DNA of 64,000 nt from Phycisphaerales bacterium (GTDB taxonomy: Bacteria; Planctomycetota; Phycisphaerae; Phycisphaerales; UBA5793). Each line of letters starts with the position of its first letter. Within the stretch, counting starts at the first letter, position 1. Location of the stretch: positions 274,635-338,634 of the forward strand of contig JBICHN010000011.1 in assembly GCA_043101845.1 (NCBI GenBank), in the 5' to 3' direction. Below, in pieces: positions 20,289 through 37,950 of the stretch. The translations under genes were made by a program, and so were the position numbers. A model generated the notes under the pieces. The model ran no database searches, had not been told where the DNA came from, and saw only the letters and a program-made list of their open reading frames with translations.

Positions 20289-20870
20289 ATGAAGAAGTAG
20301 AAGTGACGGATCGGTGAGGGCGAAGGATGCCTCGAGGATTGGCGCCCAACAGCGCCCCCAACTCAACTTAGCCCCGGGTGAATACACCCGGGGAAACGGC
20401 GCCCGTCCGCGCGAACGCCTCGCGGCTCCGGGGGATCGACCCCCTCCACCGCGACCCCGCTCACAGAGCGCGGCTCTACGGAAAGTGAGCGAACAACCAC
20501 CGCCCCGGGGTGGAACAGGCCTCTGTGCCTGTTCGAGGCTCGACGAATCTCCGGATTCAACCCCCGAACAACAACGGACGCCCGAAAGAAAAAACCCCGC
20601 ATGCGAATGCGGGGCCTGCTCACCCGGAGTCACCCCGGCGCAACCCGCAACGCGGCGCGACACCCGTTTGCCGAACCGTGTGCCACTGCCGTGTCGGCAG
20701 TGCGAAGCGGCGGACGGCGCGTGAAACGGCGTGCGCTCACCTCGGCGCCGGCGCCCTCGTCCCATTCGCACGGCCTGGAAGGCCGTGGCACACGAACCGA
20801 CGGCCGACCGTCCGCGTCACCCTCCGCCGCGCACGCGTCACACGCATTCCGGTACACTGACCGAGAGCCG

Positions 20871-21458
20871 ATGCCGTCTCCCCGCGCGAAGAACGACACC
20901 GACAACGAACGCGACGCCACCACGCCGCGCTTCTTCCGCTTCCAGAAACGATCACGCCGGCGCCCCCGTCCCGGCGACCTGTTCGTCATGCGCGAGCGCG
21001 CCGACCCCGGCCGCTACCTGCACGGCCTCGTCGTCCGGACCGACGCGGACATCAGCCGGACCGGCCACGCCGGCAGCCTCATCTACCTCTTCAACCGGCT
21101 CACCGACGAGCCGCGCCCGGTCGACGACCCGATCGCGACGATGCGGCCCGCGAACCTGCTCCTGCCGCCCATCATCACGAATCGACGCCCGTGGACGATG
21201 GGCCTGTTCCGCACAATCGACGATGACAGTTATTCGATCGACGACTTCGAGCTCCTCGACCCCCACATCTTCGACGCCGTCATCCCCACGAGCCGCCGCT
21301 TCGTGAACGAACACGGCGACCCGGTCGACGCCGAAACCGTGACCGCAATGACACGCCACATGACACACCACCACCCCCGCCCCTTCCTCGAAGCCGGCGT
21401 CGTCGGTTACCTCTACATCGACGAACTCGCGGGGGAGGCGCTGGGGTGGGAGAAGTGA
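20871..21458 (+). CDS. Immunity protein Imm26-like
   Basis: R.RPRPGDLF......Y.HG.VV.....LIYLFN.......LLLPPIITNRRPW..GLFRTI resembles the Imm26 pattern. Confidence 0.65.
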   Translation: MPSPRAKNDTDNERDATTPRFFRFQKRSRRRPRPGDLFVMRERADPGRYLHGLVVRTDADISRTGHAGSLIYLFNRLTDEPRPVDDPIATMRPANLLLPPIITNRRPWTMGLFRTIDDDSYSIDDFELLDPHIFDAVIPTSRRFVNEHGDPVDAETVTAMTRHMTHHHPRPFLEAGVVGYLYIDELAGEALGWEK

Positions 21459-21514
21459 CTTGGAAGGCTATCCGAACTCGATCGGCATGATATTTTGGGG
21501 CCTTAGCACAACCG

Positions 21515-21548
21515 AAAACGAAACCGCTGCGGAGTTGTCCGCAGCGGT
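21515..21548 (-). terminator. Rho-independent terminator of the FG-GAP gene
   Basis: 11-bp stem ACCGCTGCGGA/TCCGCAGCGGT (21523-21548) followed on the minus strand by TTCGTTTT, 20 nt after the stop at 21568. Confidence 0.75.
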
Positions 21549-21567
21549 CTCAGTTCAAGGTGATATG

Positions 21568-23571
21568 TTAGAAGACCTCATCTGACAGCACCCAGCTCGT
21601 TCTTCCGGTGTTCTGGGCAGCTTGATACACGACGGTACGACCCTGCCAAGTCCAAGGAATCGCTATGCCAATTTCAGCAGTTCCGTCGTTCATTACCGAA
21701 AACAATGGCGATACTTCATCGTAATTTGACAGTTGAAGACATATACCTGACACCACTGATTGGCCATCGAAACGGCTGAAAATGATGCGTGTATTATTCT
21801 CCCCCGGGTCCGCATTCGCGATCTCGAATAAAGAAACCTTACGAGCGGTGAATTGATCAACGGTAAGTTCAAACGATCTAGGCTGCGTTGGCAATGCGCC
21901 TAGTCCGGGCCAAGGGAAAACATGAGAGGCCCCGTTCAACTCGTCTGAAGCATTCCCATCACAGCGGCACCATTCGTGCGCGGTCGTCAATGGCGCCCCC
22001 GCCAGCAATGCCGGTACTTCGCCGTTGTATTGACTGAACCCGCTCGCAACCGAGTCGCCAAGACCGCCTCCCTCGAAATCTATGCGTAGATCGTCGTCAC
22101 TCTCGAACTGACCAGTTCCACCCCAGATCCATAGAGGCGCCGGATCACTCGACGGGTCGGGTATCGAGTAGACCCAGACACGGCCTTGGTATGAGTTTGG
22201 TGCAGCGAGCGGCCGCAAGGCAGGCGCCCCGACGAGCAGTTCGTCCTTGCCATCGCCGGTAAGATCACCGGCCGCGGCAAGGGAGAATCCAAATTCCGTG
22301 TTCTCCTCTAGCTTGAAGGCGACGCTTGGTCCGTCGAGGACAGTGGTGAGGGTCCATGGATTGGGGCCAGCAGTTTCATAAATATAAACCCTCCCCTCGA
22401 AACCGGTATCGCAACTCCTCGGATCTCCGACGACGATTTCGGGCGCGGAATCTCCCCAGAGATCGACCGCCGCAATGTATGTCCCCCATGCCTCACTAAC
22501 GCCGGCCGGCGCCGGAACCGTCCGCTCATGATGGATCTCGCTCGCCGCAAAATTCACGCTGAACACTTCGATGGATGCCGTTCCGCTCGCACGAAAGACT
22601 CGAAGGAGCACTTCGACTACACCGTCACCGTCGTCGTCATGCGTTTGGACGACTTTACGTGCCCGGATGAAATGGCCTTCTCCAGGCGACCACTCATGGA
22701 ACCGATAGCTCACGCAAGAATCGTAGAACACCCGACCGGGTGCCAAATTCGGAAACCGATTCGGATCGGGATTCGCGAGATTAACCTCATCGTGAAACAC
22801 AAAATCCGATCCGGTAAATTCGCCAAAGAAATGAAGTTTATCGTCGCCCTCCAAAGGAGTTCCGAACGCCTCGACAAGTGCGATGTCGAGGCCGGGAGTG
22901 CCGGGATCAATCATCGCGTCGGCTGCCGCATCCGGCAGGCCGGAATTATCTATACTCTCACAGTTGTTGAAGAATGTGCATGCCGACCAGAGCACTGATA
23001 GATCATGCGTTGATGAGTCGATACTGAGGAGTGACGCGCGCGAACCAGCGCAACCGTCGTCACCAGAACACGCACTCGAGGCCACCAAAAACTCATTAAA
23101 GGAGTCCCCCGTCCATTCCCCGGCGTCGACGACAATCGGGCCGACAATTGAACCGGTGTATCGTGAGTCGCTCACTGCAGCAACAAGGTCGAACCGCGGG
23201 ACCCCGTTCGCTGATTGGAAGACCTCGTAGACGAAGACGAGTCCGCGCTGGCAACCAGGAGTGCCTTCATCGAAGCGTCCTCCTGGATCGCTGACTGCGA
23301 GCAAGTTTGTCCCGAGGCGCGTCAGATAGGCGCCGAAATGATGGCCGCCAGAGACGACCTCCGAATTCGGGAATTCGGCGACTTCCGTCGGGCACGGATA
23401 AAGCAGTACTTCCCCGCAATAGTTCGGGGGGCGCACGCTGTCACATGGGGCGGGGTATGAGTCACAGGGCTTCTGCGAGACGGCGGGCGCTGAGCCCACG
23501 CAGATCGCGATGATCAAGAGAGGGCCGGACCATGAGAGACGCGGCGCGAGCCGGATCCGTTGAGTCTGCAT
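21568..23571 (-). CDS. Secreted FG-GAP / integrin-alpha beta-propeller repeat protein
   Basis: Signal peptide; FG.SLAAAGDLTGDGKDELLVGAP, DLWGDSAPEIVVGDP, GRVYIY repeats; Cys-rich; lower GC than backbone. Confidence 0.75.
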   Translation of the reverse strand: MQTQRIRLAPRLSWSGPLLIIAICVGSAPAVSQKPCDSYPAPCDSVRPPNYCGEVLLYPCPTEVAEFPNSEVVSGGHHFGAYLTRLGTNLLAVSDPGGRFDEGTPGCQRGLVFVYEVFQSANGVPRFDLVAAVSDSRYTGSIVGPIVVDAGEWTGDSFNEFLVASSACSGDDGCAGSRASLLSIDSSTHDLSVLWSACTFFNNCESIDNSGLPDAAADAMIDPGTPGLDIALVEAFGTPLEGDDKLHFFGEFTGSDFVFHDEVNLANPDPNRFPNLAPGRVFYDSCVSYRFHEWSPGEGHFIRARKVVQTHDDDGDGVVEVLLRVFRASGTASIEVFSVNFAASEIHHERTVPAPAGVSEAWGTYIAAVDLWGDSAPEIVVGDPRSCDTGFEGRVYIYETAGPNPWTLTTVLDGPSVAFKLEENTEFGFSLAAAGDLTGDGKDELLVGAPALRPLAAPNSYQGRVWVYSIPDPSSDPAPLWIWGGTGQFESDDDLRIDFEGGGLGDSVASGFSQYNGEVPALLAGAPLTTAHEWCRCDGNASDELNGASHVFPWPGLGALPTQPRSFELTVDQFTARKVSLFEIANADPGENNTRIIFSRFDGQSVVSGICLQLSNYDEVSPLFSVMNDGTAEIGIAIPWTWQGRTVVYQAAQNTGRTSWVLSDEVF

Positions 23572-23770
23572 TGGTAGCCTCCAGATCGCCGGCGTGCGTC
23601 TCGCGGCTCGTCCCGCCCGACGGGCTAGATTCTGTGCAAGCGCGAAGTAGCGCCGCGGCGCATAAGGCGCAAGTTACAGATAGGCATACAAAAAATCAAG
23701 GCAGCCCGCGCCGGGGAAACTACCGGCCGCACCGGTCTCGAGACGAGTCCCGTTTCGGGCGTCAGAATGT

Positions 23771-24640
23771 ATGATTTCGAGCATGCCTCTCTTGTACTAC
23801 TGGCAGCCCGACAACTATCGCCGCGACCTCGACTATGGCGTGGGATTCCATCTGAGTCAGGGCTCGAAGCGACTCCATGAAGTCGACATTGGCGACAGCG
23901 TTTGGGCGTTCACTCGAATGCGGGGCGGCGGCTATGCGCTTGCTGCGCAGTTAGTCATCAAGGCGAAGACTCTGAATCCGCCTGGCTATCGCTATGGGAA
24001 ATACAGGGTCTGGGGCGATCTCGAACGATCACGATACTTCCACATAGATGCTCAAACGGATGTCGAAAGCACGCTGCGAAAGGCGTCGGGCCGAACATCC
24101 GCGAAGATGTTCGCGCAGGCGTTTCAGGGCCACGCCGCGGTCGTTCACATCGATCTGGCCTCGCATCAGGCGCTCTCGGAACTCGGTGCGGACCTGCCGC
24201 ATGAACCTCGCGCCCGGATCCTTCCCGAGGAGAAACTGGAGGCCGAACTCCTTTTCGGTAATGAAGCGACCGTAAGGCGTTTCATTGACGCGGAAGACTC
24301 GGGCCTCGCCGACGATCGCCGGGCGTATCTCTACAGCGAGGCGCCAAGTCGGAACCGGCGGCTGGTGCGTGAGTTGTACGATCTCTACGACAACCGATGC
24401 CAACTCTGCGAGTGGGATCCCCTCGACCTGTATAGCCGGCCGCTCTGCGAGGCGCATCACCTCGTATGGTTGAGCCGCGGCGGTGAGGACGATCTCTCGA
24501 ATATGGTGCTGATCTGTCCGAATCATCACCGCGCGATTCACCGGTGTGATGCGCCGTTTGATTTTCTCGACTTGAGCTTTCGGTTCTCGGAATCGTTGCG
24601 TGAGTCGTTGCAGCTCAATAGACATTTGGTTGGTTGTTGA
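23771..24640 (+). CDS. HNH endonuclease with uncharacterised N-terminal domain
   Basis: CQLC...EAHHLVWLSRGGEDDLSNMVLICPNHHRAIH; start may be ATG 23783. Confidence 0.85.
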   Translation: MISSMPLLYYWQPDNYRRDLDYGVGFHLSQGSKRLHEVDIGDSVWAFTRMRGGGYALAAQLVIKAKTLNPPGYRYGKYRVWGDLERSRYFHIDAQTDVESTLRKASGRTSAKMFAQAFQGHAAVVHIDLASHQALSELGADLPHEPRARILPEEKLEAELLFGNEATVRRFIDAEDSGLADDRRAYLYSEAPSRNRRLVRELYDLYDNRCQLCEWDPLDLYSRPLCEAHHLVWLSRGGEDDLSNMVLICPNHHRAIHRCDAPFDFLDLSFRFSESLRESLQLNRHLVGC

Positions 24641-29558: not shown

Positions 29559-30027
29559 CTTGCCTTGGGTACTACGCAAGTCGGGGCTCTGGACCGTCGG
29601 GAGTTTCGTCAGACGAATCTCCTGGCCGCGAGAAGGCGGCATGATCGACCCCTGTTCACTCCCGGGAGAATCCCCGGCGCGGATTTTTCAAAGTTGTTCC
29701 AGCTCCGTTGCTTGACGCGTTATACTCGGCGTCTATCGATACGACGGTCGAATGGACCGAGGGCGCGTTTCACTCATCGGTGATCATCTCACAGACGGTC
29801 CCGGATTCCCGGACTCGATTCACGAAAGGCCGCGATGGCTGAAGGCACGAGCACGAAGGCGGTGGGCGGTCAGGGCGGCGGGTCGCCCGATCTAAAATGG
29901 AAGATACACGGCAACGACGACTACAACGCCGTCGACATCGCGCACAAGGCGAATCGCGTTGGGTTTGAGATTCAGTTGTCTCTACAAAGATGAGCGACTC
30001 GAACGCCGTGAAGGTATCAAACAAGGC

Positions 30028-30855
30028 ATGAGTAAACGAACCGAGACTCGCAGCGATCGCGTTATACCCTTCCTGAAGTGGGCGGGGGGCAAGCGTTGGC
30101 TCGTTGCAAAGTCGCCGGAATTGTTCGACATCCCCTTCACGCGGTACGTCGAACCGTTTCTCGGGAGCGGCGCGGTATTCTTCCACTTGGCCCCCAAGCG
30201 CTCAGTACTCACTGATCGAAACTCCGAGCTTATCACCACGTACTCCGCGATCCGAGATGACTGGCGGGCCGTGTGGACACGATTGCGCAGACACCACCGG
30301 CACCATTCGAAAGACTACTACTACCAGCTACGATCGTCGACACCTCGCTCTCCGGCGGGCATCGCTGCGAGACTAATCTACTTGAACCGTACCTGCTGGA
30401 ATGGGTTGTACCGTGTCAATCTAAGCGGCGCGTTCAACGTACCAATCGGGACGAAGACCGACGCCATCTACGAAACCGATTGTTTTGAAAGCGTTTCGCA
30501 AATGCTGAAGTCGGCGAGCCTCAAGTCGTGCGACTTTTCAAAGACATTGGACAACACCGGCGACGGCGATTTTGTCTTCGTCGATCCGCCCTACACAGTG
30601 CGGCACGACAACAACGGTTTCATCAAATATAACGATTCGTTGTTCTCTTGGGAAGACCAGGAGCGACTGCGAGACGCAGTTGTTGACAGTCGTGCTCGCG
30701 GCGCCCGCGTTCTCGTCACTAACGCAAGCCATCCTTCGATCGAGAAACTCTACCGTGGTATCGGCCAGCACGTCCGATTGAGTCGGTCGAGCGTGATCGC
30801 TGGTGCATCAGAGTTCCGTGGACCATGTCATGAAATGGCGATCAAATGCTTCTGA
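30028..30855 (+). CDS. Dam-family (D12 class) N6-adenine DNA methyltransferase
   Basis: FLKWAGGKRWL, EPFLGSGAV, YLNRTCWNGLYRVN..G.FNVP.G, DPPY. Confidence 0.93.
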   Translation: MSKRTETRSDRVIPFLKWAGGKRWLVAKSPELFDIPFTRYVEPFLGSGAVFFHLAPKRSVLTDRNSELITTYSAIRDDWRAVWTRLRRHHRHHSKDYYYQLRSSTPRSPAGIAARLIYLNRTCWNGLYRVNLSGAFNVPIGTKTDAIYETDCFESVSQMLKSASLKSCDFSKTLDNTGDGDFVFVDPPYTVRHDNNGFIKYNDSLFSWEDQERLRDAVVDSRARGARVLVTNASHPSIEKLYRGIGQHVRLSRSSVIAGASEFRGPCHEMAIKCF

Positions 30856-31460
30856 AGATTTGCAAGGTTCTTCCGTTCGTTAACACGTTCGCCCACTATA
30901 ACAGGCATCGGCACAAAGACGCTCTAAAGAAGTTCCTCTTTCTTTGGTCCATTTCCGTCATTCCGATCGTGTCGGCATCGATCGTCGTCGCGATGGCGCC
31001 GAATGGCGGGTTCCCTGCGGCCGTTTGGGAGGCTATCCGTACTGGGTTCTTTGCGACCGATCAATTCATTTACGCAGTCGCCTTCCTTCCGCCGGTCTTG
31101 TACTTGTTGTTCGAGAAGTATGAACTTCGCGGCCATTTCATCGCGCTCAACAAACGCAAGAAGAACGAGAACCTCGAGATTCCTGGATATTTCCTGATCT
31201 ATTTGTTGACCGTTCTCGTCTTGATTTTCACAGCGTTTGTGTACGGAGTCACCAAAGCGAATCCATATTCTGTTTCGGCGACCTTTCTTGCGGTGTCGGG
31301 CGGGGTCGTGTACGCCTTTGCAATGTTCTGTTGGTACTTGTCCCTGCTTGAGTCGGTGTCACCTGATCCCTTCGGGTTTTTGGATGAGAATCGAGCAAGG
31401 GAAGCTGAAATGAGTGAAGACTTCGGGAAGCGGATCCGGAGCCGGGAGAGGCAGCAATGA
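30846..31460 (+). CDS. Hypothetical membrane protein with ~4 TM helices
   Basis: Four hydrophobic segments and a charged helical C-tail; overlaps the Dam stop and the DGQHR start. Confidence 0.75.
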   Translation: MLLKICKVLPFVNTFAHYNRHRHKDALKKFLFLWSISVIPIVSASIVVAMAPNGGFPAAVWEAIRTGFFATDQFIYAVAFLPPVLYLLFEKYELRGHFIALNKRKKNENLEIPGYFLIYLLTVLVLIFTAFVYGVTKANPYSVSATFLAVSGGVVYAFAMFCWYLSLLESVSPDPFGFLDENRAREAEMSEDFGKRIRSRERQQ

Positions 31461-32668
31461 ACAATCCAAAAGAACTGAAGCTGACGGTTCTCCCTGTCGA
31501 GCAGAAGATTGGGACGTTCTACGTCGCCTCGATATCCGCAAGAGACCTCGTCGAAATCTCATACTCTGACGTTCGGAGACTTACAGAGGACCAGCGCGAC
31601 CTTGAGCGATACCTCGGAATCCAGCGACCGGTCAATCCGCGGCGAATCAAGGAGATCAGAAAGTACCTGACGGCGAGTGACGCGACATTTCCAACAGCGG
31701 TAATCGTAGCTGTCGACGAGCGCTGCGCGGTACTTGGTGAGACGGAACGTGACGGTCCAACTGAACTGATACTGCGACCATACGACCCGGAAGAAGACAC
31801 CGACGATCAAGCGATTCCATACGGGAAGATTGCTCGGGTGATTGACGGCCAACACCGACTCGCAGCGTTTCTTGGCGAAGACGACAACTACACATTCGAT
31901 TTTGCAGACGAGAGTTTCGAGATTAACCTTGCAATATTTATTGGCGCGGACGTGTCTGAGCAGGCGAATATTTTTGCTACAGTCAATCTGGCGCAAACAA
32001 AGGTTAACAAAAGCCTAGTTTACGACCTTACCGATCTGGCGAAGGCTAGGAGCCCGCACAAGACCTGTCATGACGTAGCGGTGGTGTTGGATAGCGAATC
32101 AGCTAGTCCATTCTATGAGCGCATCAAGAGGCTTGGGACTCGAACACCTGGCCGTGGCTACGAACCGCTTACGCAGGCAGCGTTCGTGGAGTCCCTCATC
32201 CCTTTTATCTCGTCCGATCCGATGCAAGACCGCAACTTGCTTCTCGATGGCGAAAGGCTTCCACGTGCTGACGATGCCTTATTGGAGAAGCGGCCGTTTC
32301 GGAATCTATTTATTGAGAAGAAGGACCTCGACATCGCGGAGATCCTCTTTAACTACTTCGACGCAGTCCGAGCACGATGGCCAGAGTCTTGGAACGCACC
32401 AAAAGATGCCCGCAATCTGCTGCCTCGATCAAACGCGTTTAAGGCTTTTATGAAGTTCTTACGTTTAGATGTTTATCCCTCGCTGGTCGGGACTCAGTTC
32501 GGAAGTGTACCCACAAAGGGCGACTTCGATCCCTATTTCGACAGAATCGACGTGACCGACAGAGACTTCACCACAAAGAACTTTACCGCTGGAAGCAGCG
32601 GGGAGTCCACGTTCCTTAAGATGTTGAGAGGCCAGATTACGCTTGCGGATATGGTTGAGGACGATTAG
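31457..32668 (+). CDS. DGQHR-domain (DndB/ParB-like) protein
   Basis: GIQR...RR.KEI..YL, FPTAVI, VIDGQHRL, F.TVN..QT.V.KSL.YDL; ATGA coupling. Confidence 0.9.
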   Translation: MNNPKELKLTVLPVEQKIGTFYVASISARDLVEISYSDVRRLTEDQRDLERYLGIQRPVNPRRIKEIRKYLTASDATFPTAVIVAVDERCAVLGETERDGPTELILRPYDPEEDTDDQAIPYGKIARVIDGQHRLAAFLGEDDNYTFDFADESFEINLAIFIGADVSEQANIFATVNLAQTKVNKSLVYDLTDLAKARSPHKTCHDVAVVLDSESASPFYERIKRLGTRTPGRGYEPLTQAAFVESLIPFISSDPMQDRNLLLDGERLPRADDALLEKRPFRNLFIEKKDLDIAEILFNYFDAVRARWPESWNAPKDARNLLPRSNAFKAFMKFLRLDVYPSLVGTQFGSVPTKGDFDPYFDRIDVTDRDFTTKNFTAGSSGESTFLKMLRGQITLADMVEDD

Positions 32669-32898: not shown

Positions 32899-33387
32899 CT
32901 CAACGATCCGATCCGCGTGACGGAGCGGAAGAACATCGTCCAGAGCCGCAAGTTCCGTGAGGCGCTCGAAGACGCGATGCTGCGGTATACGAACAAGGCG
33001 ATCTCGACGGCGGAAGTGATTTCGCGACTGCTCGAACTGGCGCAGCATCTGCGCGACGCGAAGAAGCATGGCGAGGAGCTCGGGCTGAGTGAAGAGGAGA
33101 CCGCGTTCTATGACGCGCTCGCCGAGAACGGTTCGGCGAAGGAGATCATGAAGTCGGACACCCTGCGGCTCATGGCGCGGGAACTCGCCGAGACGGTGAA
33201 GCGGTTGCCGAAGCTCGACTGGACGCAACGAGAATCGGTGCGGGCCGATCTGCGCCGGCAGGTGCGGCGGTTACTCGCACGGTACGGCTATCCGCCTGAC
33301 CTTTTCACCCCGAAGGACGCGACGCTGCTTGTGCTCAAGCAGGCAGAGCGCGGGGCGGAGAACGTGGTGGTGGGTGAGGAGGGTTGA
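32899..33387 (+). pseudogene. hsdR: 5'-truncated type I R-M restriction subunit (HsdR) C-terminal DUF3387 remnant
   Basis: LNDPIRV..RKNIVQSRKF.E.LE....RY.NKAI.TAEVI..L.ELA...GEELGLSEEE.AFYDAL..N.SA...DWT.RESVRA.LR..V.RLL..YGYPPD; no nuclease or helicase part upstream. Confidence 0.82.
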
Positions 33388-33390
33388 GGA

Positions 33391-33615
33391 AGGCATGGAG
33401 GCACGAAGGCACGAAGGGACTGAGGGACTGAGGGACGGAGGGACGGAGGGACGGAGGGGTGAGCGAGGCGGGGATTTGAGATTTGAGATCTCTGATTTGA
33501 GAGGGCGCAATCGGCGCGATTGGGGGCGTTTTGTGCGCGCCGCGTTTATGGACGGGGGCCGTTTGAACTTCCGGCGGATCACCCTCCCCTGGCCCCTCCC
33601 TCGAGGAAGGGGGAT
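33391..33615. repeat. Composite repeat mosaic 6
   Basis: Octamer array (GRAGGSAC)n 33391-33459, GATTTGA heptamers about 33473-33501, CCCTCCCC hairpin 33569-33613. Confidence 0.85.
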
Positions 33616-33645: not shown

Positions 33646-35478
33646 TCAGCCGTCGGTGGATGACGGTTCGGGTTGCGGCGATTCGAGTTGTTCGAGCCAG
33701 GAATGCATTTGAGCCGCCATGTGGGGGGAGTCGATCTGTTCGTAGAGGTCGTGCGCCCGGCGCCAGTAGGCTCTCGCCTCGTCGGTTCGCTCACGCCGTA
33801 TGGCGACTTCGCCGAGATTCGCGCAGTTCGATGCGACACCGGAGAGTCGGCCGAGCTGTTCGTCAATCTCGAGCGATTGCAAGAACATCTCTTCGGCGCC
33901 GTCCAGGTCCTCGCGGGCGAGCCGTATGTTCCCGAGGCTCGAATAGGTCGAGCCGATTGCGGGTGTGTTCTTCATCTCACGATGCGTGTCGAGGGCCCGC
34001 TGCGCCATTTCTTCGGCGCCTTCAAGATCATTAAGCCAGCGACGCGTGCGACTGATGTCGCTGTGGCCGCGGGCGACGCCGGCGAGGTAGCCGATGGCTT
34101 CGCTGCGTTCGACGACCTCGAAATACATGCGCTCCGCCGCCTCGTATTCTTTCCTTTCCTTCAGACTGTCACCGAGCAGGCCGTACGCGGCGATGACGCC
34201 GCGCTTGCGGTCGGCGGCTTCGCTGTGCTCGAGCGCCTCGCGACCAAACTGCTCGGCGAGCGTGAAGTCGCCGCGGCGAAGGGCCAGCCGTCCCAGATTC
34301 GTATGGGCGGCGCCCTGCCCGCCCCGGTGGTCGAGCTCTTCGTAGATCGTGAGAGCTTCCCGGTAGAGCGCTTCAGCGGCTCCGGTTTCGCCACGCGACA
34401 CGGCGATGGTTCCAAGATTGTTCGTCGCGGCGGCGTAGCGGTCGGAGTCCGATTCGGTGAGCTCGCGGACGCGAACGAACGATTCCTCGGCTCGGTCAAT
34501 CTGTCCGTGGATGAGTTGAATGTTTCCCAGGTTGTTGAGGGCGTCGACATTGTCCGGGTCGAGAGCCAGGATGTCGCCAAGGGCCGATTCGGCTTCTTCG
34601 AGACGCCCCAATATGAATACATTGAAGGCATGCTGCCGCGCGAGACTGATTGCAGTTGTCTCGTATTCATTGTGGAGCGCACTCATGTTCAAATCGAGTT
34701 CGCGACGCTTTATGGCGAAGAATTCGGCGGAGTCTTCAGGTCCGAAACTGGAGAGCGGTGCGATGGCCGCCAACTCGCCGTTCTCGGCGGCGCGGACCAG
34801 ACTGGCGAGGACTTCTGGCAGCGTCCCCGCGAACGAGTCGCCAGCGTTCGAGCGTTCCGTGAGACGATCGAATTCTTCTCCGACTTCGCTGCGAAACGCG
34901 ACTATCTCCGCGTAGTTCCGATCGAGCGCCTGACGAATCGGCTCGAGCGAGTGAGCGAGTCCGTCCTCGATGAGCGTCCTGTCGGCGGCGTTGACGAAGC
35001 AGTCGCCGCATATGCCGATCATCCATGCGGCGACTCCGACGCCAACCACTCGTGCGTAACTCCCTTCACGGGTCCACTGCCGACTGAGATAGGCGATGAA
35101 CGCCGCGATGGTGACCGCCGCGGCGACCATGGACCATCCGAGGGCGTCCGTGCGAAAGATGAGCACGCATAGACTCGCCAGCGCCCCGGCCCCGAGCGAT
35201 GCGGCGCCGACAATCCTTCGTGAGGTCGGCTGATCATCGGCGGAGAACTTGCCGGCTTCGGACTGCACGCGTCGGGCCGACCAACCGATCCACGGCGCCA
35301 AGGTGCGCCAGAACGCGAACAGGGAGAGCGAAACCGCTGAGATTAGAATGCCGAACGCGCTGAGACCGAGGATGAAGCCGACGATAAGACCTGCGGTGAA
35401 GAGGGCGACCGCCAAGAGCAATGGAACGAGCACACTGCTCCGGCGAACGGTTGAGGTACCACGATTACGAATGGACAT
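33646..35478 (-). CDS. Membrane-anchored tetratricopeptide repeat protein
   Basis: Several N-terminal TM segments; many ...NNLG......G....A...Y..AL TPR units. Confidence 0.85.
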   Translation of the reverse strand: MSIRNRGTSTVRRSSVLVPLLLAVALFTAGLIVGFILGLSAFGILISAVSLSLFAFWRTLAPWIGWSARRVQSEAGKFSADDQPTSRRIVGAASLGAGALASLCVLIFRTDALGWSMVAAAVTIAAFIAYLSRQWTREGSYARVVGVGVAAWMIGICGDCFVNAADRTLIEDGLAHSLEPIRQALDRNYAEIVAFRSEVGEEFDRLTERSNAGDSFAGTLPEVLASLVRAAENGELAAIAPLSSFGPEDSAEFFAIKRRELDLNMSALHNEYETTAISLARQHAFNVFILGRLEEAESALGDILALDPDNVDALNNLGNIQLIHGQIDRAEESFVRVRELTESDSDRYAAATNNLGTIAVSRGETGAAEALYREALTIYEELDHRGGQGAAHTNLGRLALRRGDFTLAEQFGREALEHSEAADRKRGVIAAYGLLGDSLKERKEYEAAERMYFEVVERSEAIGYLAGVARGHSDISRTRRWLNDLEGAEEMAQRALDTHREMKNTPAIGSTYSSLGNIRLAREDLDGAEEMFLQSLEIDEQLGRLSGVASNCANLGEVAIRRERTDEARAYWRRAHDLYEQIDSPHMAAQMHSWLEQLESPQPEPSSTDG

Positions 35479-35511
35479 GCGAGAAACCTACCTCCGGTCA
35501 TTCTAGCTCTA

Positions 35512-36085
35512 CTGGCGCCGGTGGACTTCGGGCGAGCAGGCCCCGCATTCGCATGCGGGGTTTTTTCGGAGATTCGCGGGCTCGTCTCCGGCGGGCGTGG
35601 ATGTGTGTTGGGGTTTCGCGCGCTGCGTTGCGGGATGCGGGGCGTTTGGATTTCCGGCGGATCACCCTCCCCTGGCCCCTCCCTCGAGGGAGGGGGGTTG
35701 GGAGGAGTGGCACGAAGGCACGGGGGCACCGAGGGGGAGAGGGAGCGGAGATTTCAGATCTGAGATTTGAAATTTGAGAGGGCGGAATGGGCGCTGGGCG
35801 CCTTCGGGCGGGCAGGCCCCGCGTTGGTATGCGGCGTTTTTTTCGTGTGGGTGGGAAGGCACGGGGGCACGGGGGCACGGAGGGGCGGAGGCACGGAGGG
35901 AGGAGAGGCGGATTTGTGATTTGAGATTTGAGATTTGAGAGGGCGCAATGGGCGCCGGTGGACTTCGGGCGAGCAGGCCCCGCATTGGTATGCGGGGTTT
36001 TTTCTTTGGTGGGGATTGGTCGCGCAAGGGGCACTGGTGGACTCCCGGCGAGCAGGCCCCGCATTCGCATGCGGGGTTTTTTCGT
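35512..36085. repeat. Composite repeat mosaic 7 with four terminator-like hairpins
   Basis: GCGAGCAGGCCCCGCATT(C/G)(G/C)(C/T)ATGCGGGG-T6 at about 35532, 35808 (degenerate), 35969 and 36048, interleaved with octamer, heptamer and CCCTCCCC modules. Confidence 0.9.
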
Positions 36086-36107: not shown

Positions 36108-37697
36108 TCAGCCGTAGAACGGGAGGACGATCGTGTACATCACGAGCATGATGAGGGCGACGCCGATGAGGTTCAGGATCAGGCCGGCGCGGCACATCTG
36201 GGCGATGGTGAGTTCGCCGGAGGCGAAGACGATCGCATTGGGCGGGGTTGCGACGGGCATCATGAAGGCGCAGCTCGCGGCGAGGGCGACGGGGACGGTG
36301 AGCGTGAGCGGGCCGTAGTCGAGGCCGACCGAGACGGCGCCGAGGATCGGGAGGAAGGTCGCGGTCGTCGCGGTGTTGCTCGTGAGTTCGGTGAGAAACA
36401 CGATCATGAGCGTGACGAGGAGCACGAGGAGCGGCGCCGGGAGTGACTCGGCGCCGGCGACCGCGTTCGCGATCCACGCGGCGACGCCGGTGTGGTCGAT
36501 CGCGGTCGCGAGCGCGAGCCCGCCGCCGAAGAGGATGAGCACGCCCCAGGGAAGGCGGGTGGCCTGTTCCCAGGAGAGGACGAATACGCCTCGCTTCCAG
36601 TCGACGGGAAGGGCGAAGAGGACGACCGCGGCGAGGATCGCGATGCCCGCGTCGGAGAGGCCGGCGAGGGGCGCGAGTTCGCTCGGGAGTTCGAGTCGCG
36701 CGAGCCACGGGCGGAGCATCCAGAGGAACGCGGTCGTGAAGAAGACGGTCATGACCATGATCTCGGGTTTCGAGATCGGTCCGAGCGCGCGGAGCTGATC
36801 GCGGATGAGCGCGCGGCCGCCGGGGATCGCGTCGAGGCGCACGCGGAACGCGACGCGCGTGAGGACGAACCAGGCGATCGGGAGAAAGAGGACGACGAGG
36901 GGAACGCCGATGGGCATCCAGCTCGCGAAGGAGAGTTCGACGCCGAGCGTTTCGCCGAGGTATTGCGCGAGGAAGGTGTTCGGCGGGGTTCCGATGAGCG
37001 TGCCGACGCCGCCGATCGACGCGGCGTAGGCGACGCCGAGGAGGAGCGCGATCGCGAAGGGGAAGGGTTGTCCTTCGGGCGGGAGGTGCGGCGAGTTCGA
37101 GGCGCGGAGTTCTTCGCGCACGAGTTCGATGACGCTCAGGGCGATGGGGAGCATCATGACGGCGGTCGCGGTGTTCGAGACCCACATGCTCAGGATGGCG
37201 CTCGCGATCATGAAGCCGGCGATGAGTCGGAGGGGTTGCACGCCGACGATGAGGATCGTGCGGAGGGCGATGCGTCGGTGGAGTCCCCAGCGTTCCATGG
37301 CGAGGGCGAGCATGAAGCCGCCCATGAAGAGGAAGATGAGGTCGTCGGCGTAGCGCGAGGCGACGGTGTCGATGCCGACCTCGCCGCGCGTGAGAAGAGG
37401 GATGAGCGCGAGGGGGAGGAGGGCGGTCGCGGGAATCGGGATCGCTTCGGTGATCCAGAGGATCGCCATGAGGGTTCCGACGGCGGCGACGACGCGTGCG
37501 GCGTGGGTGAGGCCGGCTTCGTCATTCGCGGCTGCGAGGAGTTCGCTTGTCGTTTCGTCGAGGCGCGGGGCGTCGGGGAGGATGAAGTAGACGAGGAGGG
37601 CGGCGAGGGGGGCGAGGAGGAGGCCGAGGCGGCGCGCGAGGGGGGTGGCGGGGGGTTTTGGTATTTCGGTTCGGGGTGTGGGGGGCGGGTCGGACAT
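36108..37697 (-). CDS. DASS/SLC13 family sodium:dicarboxylate (or sulfate) symporter
   Basis: WITEAIP, LSMWVSNTAT..MMLP, GTLIGTPPN, LTELTSNTAT, AFMMPVATPPNA. Confidence 0.93.
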   Translation of the reverse strand: MSDPPPTPRTEIPKPPATPLARRLGLLLAPLAALLVYFILPDAPRLDETTSELLAAANDEAGLTHAARVVAAVGTLMAILWITEAIPIPATALLPLALIPLLTRGEVGIDTVASRYADDLIFLFMGGFMLALAMERWGLHRRIALRTILIVGVQPLRLIAGFMIASAILSMWVSNTATAVMMLPIALSVIELVREELRASNSPHLPPEGQPFPFAIALLLGVAYAASIGGVGTLIGTPPNTFLAQYLGETLGVELSFASWMPIGVPLVVLFLPIAWFVLTRVAFRVRLDAIPGGRALIRDQLRALGPISKPEIMVMTVFFTTAFLWMLRPWLARLELPSELAPLAGLSDAGIAILAAVVLFALPVDWKRGVFVLSWEQATRLPWGVLILFGGGLALATAIDHTGVAAWIANAVAGAESLPAPLLVLLVTLMIVFLTELTSNTATTATFLPILGAVSVGLDYGPLTLTVPVALAASCAFMMPVATPPNAIVFASGELTIAQMCRAGLILNLIGVALIMLVMYTIVLPFYG

Positions 37698-37710
37698 GGG
37701 GTTTCTATGA

Positions 37711-37950
37711 AGGCACGGAGGCACGGTGGCACGGAGGCACGAAGGCACGGGGGCACGAAGGGGCGGAGGGGGGCGGAGGGGAGAAGGGGAGATTTGAAAT
37801 TCGGGATTTGAAATTTGAGAATCGGACGGAACTGGGGGAGCGGAGATTTGAGATTTGGGACGAGGGTTTGTTGCGCCGCGTTGCGGGCGCCGGCCACTTT
37901 CTACTTTGGCGGTTCACCCTCCCCCGGCCCCTCCCTCGGAGGGAGGGGAG
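37711..37950. repeat. Composite repeat mosaic 8
   Basis: (GGCACGRR)n octamers 37711-37760, GATTTGA heptamers 37790-37858, CCCTCCCC hairpin about 37915-37950. Confidence 0.8.

Follow-up and report, generated by a model that had tools for sequence, protein, structure and literature searches.

We analyzed a 64,000-nucleotide stretch of a Phycisphaerales bacterium (GCA_043101845.1, contig JBICHN010000011.1; the whole stretch is called the window below), which carries a 2.6-kb cassette of three genes, all co-oriented on the + strand, for a Dam-type DNA methylase, a small membrane protein and a DGQHR protein. The triad is probably an undescribed methylation-linked defense module. The features of the locus are as follows (aa, amino acids; TM, transmembrane; GC, guanine-plus-cytosine):

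29560..30027, + strand: non-coding stretch 5′ of the cassette, presumed promoter region, where the low-GC islet begins (GC profile)

30028..30855, + strand: Dam-family (D12 class, DpnM-like) N6-adenine DNA methyltransferase, 275 aa (Pfam, NCBIfam and PADLOC profiles)

30846..31460, + strand: predicted small inner-membrane protein, 204 aa, about four TM helices, no named family (AlphaFold2 [AF2] model)

31457..32668, + strand: DGQHR protein, 403 aa, with an N-terminal domain of putative ParB/Srx fold and a helical C-terminal half as in DndB-type proteins

32917..33387, + strand: relic of the type I restriction gene hsdR, C-terminal 156 aa, a neighbor outside the cassette (PF11867)

An earlier sequence-only reading of the window had described three overlapping, co-oriented genes in a low-GC islet with an hsdR remnant downstream, and the open reading frames (ORFs), their overlaps, the GC profile and the PF11867 match all bear this out. 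The methylase and membrane-protein genes overlap by 10 nt, the junction between the membrane-protein and DGQHR genes is an ATGA stop/start overlap, and GC content is 0.52–0.55 over the cassette versus 0.65–0.72 on either flank. The hsdR relic matches PF11867 (T1RH-like_C, E 3.4e-55) over profile positions 185–328 of 329 only and is the sole PF11867 match in the source genome (4.12 Mb, 96% complete), the basis of all genome-wide statements of presence or absence made here. The upstream stretch contains three GATC sites; a sigma-70 scan of its + strand gave no convincing match, and scans of the cassette for promoters, terminators and repeats returned nothing exceeding chance. Synteny is uninformative: the nearest genomes belong to another genus, the flanking phosphodiesterase is 57% identical, and no empty site could be shown.

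The first gene was correctly read as a Dam-family methyltransferase with an intact DPPY motif. Its product scores 213.2 bits against TIGR00571 (cutoff 114.85) and matches PF02086 (D12 methyltransferase; E 7.6e-41, 140.9 bits vs. a cutoff of 22) and the PADLOC model MTase_II (2.1e-98). The translation contains FVDPPYT and EPFLGSGAV, which we take to be the catalytic DPPY motif and the S-adenosylmethionine-binding motif of FxGxG type, respectively. Among solved chains the closest is DpnM (2dpm_A, E 9.5e-50, full length), followed by Escherichia coli Dam (3.5e-24); the score against the E. coli Dam equivalog NF008152 stays below the cutoff (109.6 vs. 441 bits). The alignment with DpnM favors the ATG at 30028 as the start; a longer alternative, the TTG, lies at 29959. 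DpnM is the GATC methylase of the DpnII system, and by this similarity GATC is the likely target of the window's enzyme, the only D12 methyltransferase of the source genome. As a side observation, GATC is about three times commoner in the window than base composition predicts (592 observed, 203 expected), with 21 observed and 10 expected in the cassette and no sign of avoidance.

The membrane protein has no match in Pfam, NCBIfam or PADLOC. Its AF2 model (predicted local distance difference test [pLDDT] 86.5) contains four membrane-length helices (residues 20–49, 72–100, 115–138 and 145–170), two short N-terminal helices and a charged C-terminal helix (175–203). Hydropathy gives three strong segments, and the count of four TM helices assigned by the sequence-only reading, supported by the model, is a plausible prediction. 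A basic N-terminus and a likewise basic loop joining helices 2 and 3 point to a cytoplasmic location of both termini. A Foldseek comparison of the model with the PDB found nothing at E ≤ 0.001, and an Atlas search returned only "hypothetical protein" clusters. The family is nevertheless large, with 818 representative clusters at E ≤ 1e-3, the best 150 of which are stand-alone proteins of 113–257 aa.

The assignment of the third gene to the DGQHR proteins is confirmed by the DGQHR domain model TIGR03187 (211.8 bits vs. a cutoff of 58.85), with a further match to PF14072 (E 2e-13), and its product is a full-length protein of DndB type. The protein falls far under the equivalog models for DndB (TIGR03233, 16.5 vs. 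328 bits) and DpdB (NF041060, 67.7 vs. 300 bits), and it is also under the cutoff of TIGR04172 (174.9 vs. 450 bits), though aligned over positions 3–379 of 381. The motifs QR (Q56–R57), DGQHR (D130–R134) and FATVN (F173–N177) are invariant in an alignment of 32 homologs that has more than 100 invariant positions in all. QR, DGQHR and FxxxN are the motifs by which the family has been defined (PMC4619093). Homologs are numerous: more than 3000 at E ≤ 1e-3 among 8000 candidates scored, the best 120 listed being 390–408 aa long.

In the AF2 model of the DGQHR protein (pLDDT 78.8), residues ∼16–183 align best by structural comparison (VIA) with PadC (Z 6.7, root-mean-square deviation 3.3, 98 residues aligned), followed by sulfiredoxin (Z 5.3), the ParB N-terminal domain of pNOB8 (5.1), KorB (5.0), SspE (6jiv_A, 4.2), Osa (3.5) and DndI (9jfl_A, 3.1). 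These values (Z 3.1–6.7) point to a ParB/Srx-like fold for the N-terminal domain, weakly if taken alone. Foldseek placed Noc at a weak E of 0.12 and found nothing in the PDB at E ≤ 0.001, and a profile search of solved chains gave a chance-level match only. The C-terminal half is helical and matches only the second half of other DGQHR/DndB models; Pfam finds no DUF1524/HNH nuclease domain in the protein. We also considered a HEPN reading of this half, an idea drawn from Makarova 2013 and a survey of HEPN domains, and rejected it: there is no conserved Rx4-6H among its invariant columns and no HEPN match.

Scanning one genome per species, we found five loci with DGQHR proteins 49–62% identical to the window's, in beta- and alpha-proteobacteria and Magnetococcales. 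The order methylase, membrane protein, DGQHR is kept in all four that have upstream DNA; the fifth (L004), whose contig begins inside the DGQHR gene, was left out. Together with the best 80 of 345 confirmed loci from a metagenome scan, these four make 84 loci, which fall into 70 clusters at 95% DGQHR identity. We assessed the pair of membrane-protein and DGQHR genes in the 58 cluster representatives whose upstream sequence reaches 650 nt or more, and the methylase in the 48 where it reaches 1500 nt or more.

In all 58 representatives the DGQHR gene is directly preceded by a membrane-protein gene or what is left of one. In 54 it is an intact small multi-TM ORF directly 5′ of the DGQHR gene, and in four (L019, L024, L073 and L091) a frameshifted or truncated remnant. 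A hidden Markov model (HMM) of the membrane family matches 53 of the 54 intact ORFs, 28 of its 36 rows having come from these same loci. A possible DGQHR start is found within −14 to +10 nt of the membrane-gene stop in 57 out of 57 loci, with an overlap of 4 nt in 26 and of 1 nt in seven; the script chose the start nearest to that stop, which biases these figures toward overlaps. Separately, L091 and L092 have 1558 nt in common at 99.8% identity, comprising the tail of the membrane gene plus the DGQHR gene; where the two contigs part there are short repeats (about 150 nt, 85–87% identical), which suggests recombination or mis-assembly at the cassette edge.

The methylase is a frequent and variable partner. 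A Dam-type gene lies directly upstream of the membrane gene in 36 of the 48 representatives, and some DNA methylase gene is present in the locus in 44. Other arrangements comprise Dam with a broken membrane gene (L019 and L024); Dam followed by an additional DGQHR-domain gene of 757 aa (L059); an MT-A70 methylase (L039 and L056) or a long D12 methylase (L062), each with a BglII-family nuclease; a long D12 methylase downstream on the opposite strand (L068); an N6_N4 methylase (L079); no recognized methylase (L060, L065 and L067); and a rearranged contig (L091). In a collection of viral sequences, the membrane gene precedes the DGQHR gene in all 12 loci, and 11 have Dam, four times upstream and seven times convergent and directly downstream (the other locus, L115, stops at the contig edge). 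The neighborhood search proposed with the sequence-only reading has therefore found a conserved unit, which recurs across many bacteria, on plasmids and in prophage-like contigs, and has refined its core: the invariant part is the pair of membrane protein and DGQHR protein, and the methylase partner is exchangeable.

We note that a second, large DGQHR-domain protein (757–830 aa) adjoins the Dam gene in three loci (L059:1590–3863, L064:603–3095 and L076:730–3078). About 230 aa at the N-terminus and 250 aa at the C-terminus of these proteins are unassigned; the PADLOC candidate PDC-M34B is weakly matched by the C-terminus of the L059 protein and by a 309-aa ORF upstream of the L065 pair.

A search of plasmids returned 29 matching records, and in all eight that we examined a protein of multi-TM type is encoded upstream of the DGQHR gene. 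A Roseateles plasmid has the full triad. Acinetobacter pTR3_1 carries, in order, a BglII-family nuclease, a helix-turn-helix protein, an adenine methylase, the membrane protein and DGQHR; in Rhizobium rhizogenes pRiA4 the pair adjoins a BglII/BstYI-family nuclease and an MT-A70 methylase. The pair stands alone on a Bacillus thuringiensis plasmid, and on a Lactiplantibacillus plantarum plasmid the upstream protein is a different one, of 273 aa with two predicted TM segments. The plasmids of R. phaseoli, Ruegeria and Aureimonas encode a 4-TM protein of 176–185 aa with a "PT-associated DGQHR protein 1" (PT, phosphorothioation), either beside dndC, a small protein, dndD and an FtsK-like gene or beside PT restriction genes. 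These PT-linked DGQHR proteins are 27–30% identical to the window's. Their 4-TM partners have no detectable homology to the window's membrane family (hhalign probability 1%): a first HMM built from eight membrane proteins missed the plasmid partners, and a wider one gave at most 17.6 bits. By sequence the PT-linked partners form a family of their own, parallel with the window's pair in architecture only.

The three proteins differ in how well they are conserved. Median identities to the window's proteins over 33 loci are 54% (methylase), 53% (DGQHR protein) and only 27% (membrane protein, which tblastn detects in just 17 of the 33). Our DGQHR tree has 55 rows (the window and 54 loci with judgeable methylase context, leaving out partial, duplicate and short loci), and methylase context changes several times across it. 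L039, with MT-A70 and a BglII nuclease, is sister to L047, with Dam (support 100/97, 72% identity). One starred clade with identities of 74–76% unites L060 (no methylase), L068 (long D12 downstream), L056 (MT-A70) and L062 (long D12). On starred branches, then, DGQHR proteins 72–76% identical to each other occur beside Dam, MT-A70, long D12 or no recognized methylase. Six of the seven convergent viral loci were included in the tree (all but L117), and they group as a single clade.

In restriction-modification cassettes the orientation of the modification gene varies around a fixed second unit. The pair likewise acts as a single unit, with the methylase as a second, exchangeable one, which is the layout of such cassettes, the convergent form included. 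Swapping of partners among close relatives fits a reader of the common product, N6-methyladenine (m6A), better than a protein-specific cofactor, since a helper obliged to dock on the methylase would fail once an enzyme of an unrelated class took its place.

We tentatively favor, at somewhat less than even confidence, a modification-reading defense module analogous to SspE and DndI, in which the mark read would be m6A and the membrane partner would take the place of the nuclease domain. The DpnM-like methylase would put m6A on resident DNA, by similarity likely at GATC. The 4-TM and DGQHR proteins, translationally coupled, would be the arm that reads the mark and acts; we infer that the DGQHR protein is a nucleoside triphosphate (NTP) binder of ParB/Srx fold that is bound by its membrane partner, held at the inner membrane and engages DNA there. 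The chemical mark, rather than any particular sequence, would separate resident from unmarked incoming DNA. With no fused HNH domain, the response, and with it any effect on phages, would pass through the membrane partner as DNA exclusion, membrane damage or recruitment of a nuclease. The sequence-only reading had likewise proposed that methylation marks self, that the DGQHR protein senses and that the membrane protein executes; these are candidate roles.

Among characterized systems the closest precedents are DndI and SspE, ParB-like DUF262 NTPases whose activity is set by the host phosphorothioate via a hydrophobic patch (PMC11662687); DndI harms cells that lack the mark, and SspE requires the mark to act (PMC11662687; PMC9646914; PMC8092258). 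Binding of ATP and GTP has been described for a DndB-like protein, and prophages often carry fusions of a ParB fold to a DNA methylase (bioRxiv 10.1101/2025.10.10.680097). ParB/Srx enzymes are able to nick DNA under nucleotide control (PMC12839542).

The architecture of the DGQHR protein can also be taken in another direction. It might act like the DndB repressor or as an ATPase helper of DpdB type, sequestered and released by the membrane protein, so that the cassette would be a regulated orphan methylase, for epigenetic control or protection of a mobile element, and would have no effector. The full DndB/DpdB-type architecture of the protein speaks for this, as do the functions of the two namesakes: DndB represses dndBCDE (PMC4507180), and DpdB is a ParB-like ATPase required for base insertion (PMC12839542). 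The distant PT-linked relatives with a 4-TM partner lie beside dndC and dndD, the place expected for dndB, and a regulator binding an operator could persist when the methylase gene is swapped. We take this explanation as the main rival of the defense reading and nevertheless regard it as rather unlikely. The scores against the DndB and DpdB models (16.5 vs. 328 and 67.7 vs. 300 bits) are far below their cutoffs, an obligatory membrane partner is not known for either protein, and no conserved palindrome or operator was seen upstream in the window, the one locus in which it was looked for. High conservation (53% for DGQHR vs. 54% for the methylase) and joint travel across phyla would go unexplained for a mere pair of regulators. 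To our knowledge, moreover, Dam methylases require no ATPase helper.

The sequence-only reading had also found no restriction endonuclease, dnd, ssp or pbe gene in the window. For dndC and dndD this stands, as neither has a match in the source genome (ssp and pbe were not searched by name). As regards nucleases it needs qualifying: a 289-aa protein at 23771–24640 (+ strand) has a C-terminal HNH domain (PF01844, E 1.2e-6), a weak match to the PADLOC type IV methyl-directed restriction endonuclease (5e-6) and a score of 25.6 bits, against a cutoff of 180, for the NCBIfam PT-DNA-binding restriction endonuclease. This protein may be a modification-dependent nuclease; it is encoded 5.4 kb upstream of the cassette, with unrelated genes between.

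A scan of 106 ORFs flanking 32 Dam-type metagenome loci, to which 10 flanking ORFs of L001–L005 were added in a separate scan (16 ORFs of these loci lay outside the first), found no type II nuclease family, by recognized folds only, in the flanks of 36 Dam-type loci. Neither the membrane protein nor the DGQHR protein matches a nuclease family in Pfam, NCBIfam or PADLOC. BglII-family nucleases accompany the three swapped-methylase metagenome loci L039, L056 and L062 and two of the plasmids. A further explanation is that the DGQHR protein is itself a nuclease in a plain restriction-modification scheme. The present evidence does not separate it from the modification-reading module, and we leave it a part of the small probability that remains.

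The flanks are mixed: besides housekeeping genes they contain genes of mobile elements (resolvase, transposase, integrase, RepA, ParA-like, CagX and ArdA, with terminase and portal in L029) and a small number connected with defense or toxins (Mrr, L076; an AAA_15/AAA_21 ATPase, L053; HipA, L077); plasmid, phage and toxin-antitoxin genes also occur across loci. The near-identical triads of L029 and L107, beside phage terminase, portal and P22 antirepressor-like genes, represent a variant carried by a prophage-like element. Of 400 other genomes sampled from the window's phylum, just one matched, weakly (E 5.9e-23); the matches listed include DGQHR homologs 59–73% identical in Pseudomonas, Vreelandella, Microbulbifer, Leptospira, Hylemonella and Planctomycetes. 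From its low GC content, its rarity in its own phylum and its homologs in other taxa, we conclude that the cassette has been horizontally acquired and is mobile.

Such mobility raises the question of who benefits. In a selfish or anti-restriction module, the methylase would shield the element's DNA from host restriction or serve as antidote to a poison made of the membrane and DGQHR proteins, to the advantage of the element and not the host. The cassette does occur on plasmids, on the 12 viral-collection contigs and beside integrases, transposases, ArdA, RepA and terminase/portal genes, and fusions of ParB folds with methylases are enriched in prophages (10.1101/2025.10.10.680097). The frameshifted membrane genes (four of 58) would fit a toxic component, sequencing errors being another possible source. 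Many copies nonetheless lie among chromosomal housekeeping genes, and addiction and defense are not mutually exclusive roles; we consider a purely selfish module highly improbable.

A membrane protein beside a methylase also recalls the Metis systems. In a scheme of that kind, a phage would degrade the marked host DNA, the m6A nucleotides released would trigger the membrane protein to damage the membrane, and the DGQHR protein would bind or turn over nucleotides as a sensor or safeguard. Type II Metis pairs a 3-TM effector with a nucleotide phosphatase and is Dam-dependent, and putative type III operons carry their own methylase (bioRxiv 10.1101/2025.11.05.686725). A signal independent of sequence would account for the swapping of methylase classes, and the ParB/Srx fold binds nucleotides. 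Homology is lacking: PF00149 and PF13419 were not found in the three proteins, and the membrane protein matches nothing. The characterized DGQHR and DUF262 relatives act on DNA and not on free nucleotides, as far as the literature consulted describes them in its available portions, and 403 aa with over 100 invariant positions look like too much for a mere nucleotide sink. We judge this scheme improbable.

Several observations also weigh against the modification-reading module that we favor. All loci were collected through the DGQHR protein, and membrane-family genes that lack it fall outside this sampling. L060, L065, L067 and the B. thuringiensis plasmid have the pair with no recognized methyltransferase adjacent. 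Many flanks of Dam-type loci are housekeeping genes rather than defense genes (a raw listing, from which no enrichment is claimed). The fold matches are weak, the best Z of 6.7 lying in the range under 8 where, by the tool's own warning, a score can reflect a common arrangement. No nuclease or other effector domain is recognizable in the DGQHR protein, which is built throughout like DndB and DpdB, a repressor and an ATPase cofactor that work on the side of modification. The membrane protein resembles no known effector in PADLOC, the Atlas or the PDB (Foldseek) and could be a mere anchor. The literature yielded no experiment on any member of the family.

A broader proposal is that the pair is a general plug-in reader and effector for DNA modification, serving m6A from at least three methylase classes and, via the sister family, phosphorothioate made by DndC/D; membrane-based defense would be triggered by the state of the mark, on entering DNA or on released modified nucleotides. 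We hold this to be doubtful; if true, it would amount to a nuclease-free form of modification-based immunity. Were the cassette instead the control module of an orphan Dam, it would be the first membrane-tethered control of such an enzyme. Under either reading, many methylases currently listed as orphans would be accounted for. A cassette that defends would offer a new route from methyl mark to protection, and the DndB-type half of the ParB/Srx superfamily would gain a role beyond phosphorothioation and deazaguanine systems.

Elsewhere in the window, a second stretch of lower GC content (0.55–0.61, about 21000–24500) holds a gene with an Imm26-like immunity-protein match (20601–21458, + strand, E 5.4e-5) and one for a 667-aa FG-GAP repeat protein (21568–23571, − strand). 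Related GC-rich repeat motifs (GGCACGAAGG, GGGACGGAGGG and GATTTGAGATT) occur at 29826–29860 and 33390–33500, bracketing the cassette and the hsdR relic. Judging by the ORF translations, further intergenic stretches near 35400–36000 and 37650–37900 may hold similar motifs, and the bracketing motifs are probably a genome-wide intergenic repeat.

The combination of genes had been put forward as one without a name, and this has held up in the sources covered. PADLOC-DB 2.0.0 finds no complete system, giving MTase_II for the methylase, nothing for the membrane protein and weak DpdB/DndB domain matches for the DGQHR protein. We found no description or name of a methylase–membrane protein–DGQHR unit in the openly available full-text literature, and the available portions of five comparative papers (PMC3632139, PMC10853773, PMC12839542, PMC3710099 and PMC4619093) do not mention the triad. 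The cassette would belong to modification-based discrimination with a reader of the ParB/Srx family. It is widespread and much smaller than the known modification-based systems, consisting of a common methylase and two proteins without recognizable nuclease. Immunity of this kind is known with nucleases (restriction-modification, Dnd, Ssp and Dpd) and with large complexes (BREX and DISARM).

Of the systems with which it can be compared, DpnII-type restriction-modification has the DpnM-like methylase, the compact mobile cassette and the co-oriented or convergent methylase in common with it; unlike there, no nuclease fold is recognized in the cassette's second unit, and the BglII-family nuclease, where present, is additional to the pair. 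Noc and Osa are ParB-fold proteins acting at the inner membrane, as proposed for the DGQHR protein, though the fold matches to them are weak (Foldseek E 0.12 for Noc, Z 3.5 for Osa); they bind the membrane themselves or via a secretion machine and have no methylase partner. Osa is an ATPase/DNase at the type IV secretion system. Noc binds the membrane in a CTP-dependent manner (bioRxiv 10.1101/2025.10.10.680097). Metis types II and III (membrane effector MisC, phosphatase MisB, own methylase) are alike in logic, combining a small membrane protein, a nucleotide-handling protein and an adenine methylase; in the portions of the source available, the likeness to MisC is by description only, and no domains are shared (no PF00149/MisA, no PF13419/MisB).

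Closer in sequence are the DGQHR families themselves. DndB and DpdB have the two-part architecture, the DGQHR motif and the linkage to a DNA-modifying enzyme; the window's protein differs in scoring below their cutoffs, in a genome with no dndC or dndD, and in having as partners a methylase and an obligatory membrane protein. With TIGR04172, a computational family named "DNA phosphorothioation-associated DGQHR protein 1", it aligns over the whole model, and three plasmid members of that family have a 4-TM protein directly upstream. The score is 175 bits against 450, however, the members lie beside dndC, dndD and FtsK-like genes and not beside a methylase, and their membrane partner is not detectably homologous. 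SspE and DndI (DUF262 NTPase with a DUF1524/HNH nickase) differ in their mark, which would be m6A rather than phosphorothioate in the cassette, and in their HNH/DUF1524 domain, in whose place the cassette has a DndB-type helical C-terminal half and a separate, constant 4-TM partner. What they would have in common with it is a ParB/Srx nucleotide-binding domain, putative in the cassette, encoded beside a DNA-modification module, and in SspE and DndI activity is set by the host mark (PMC11662687).

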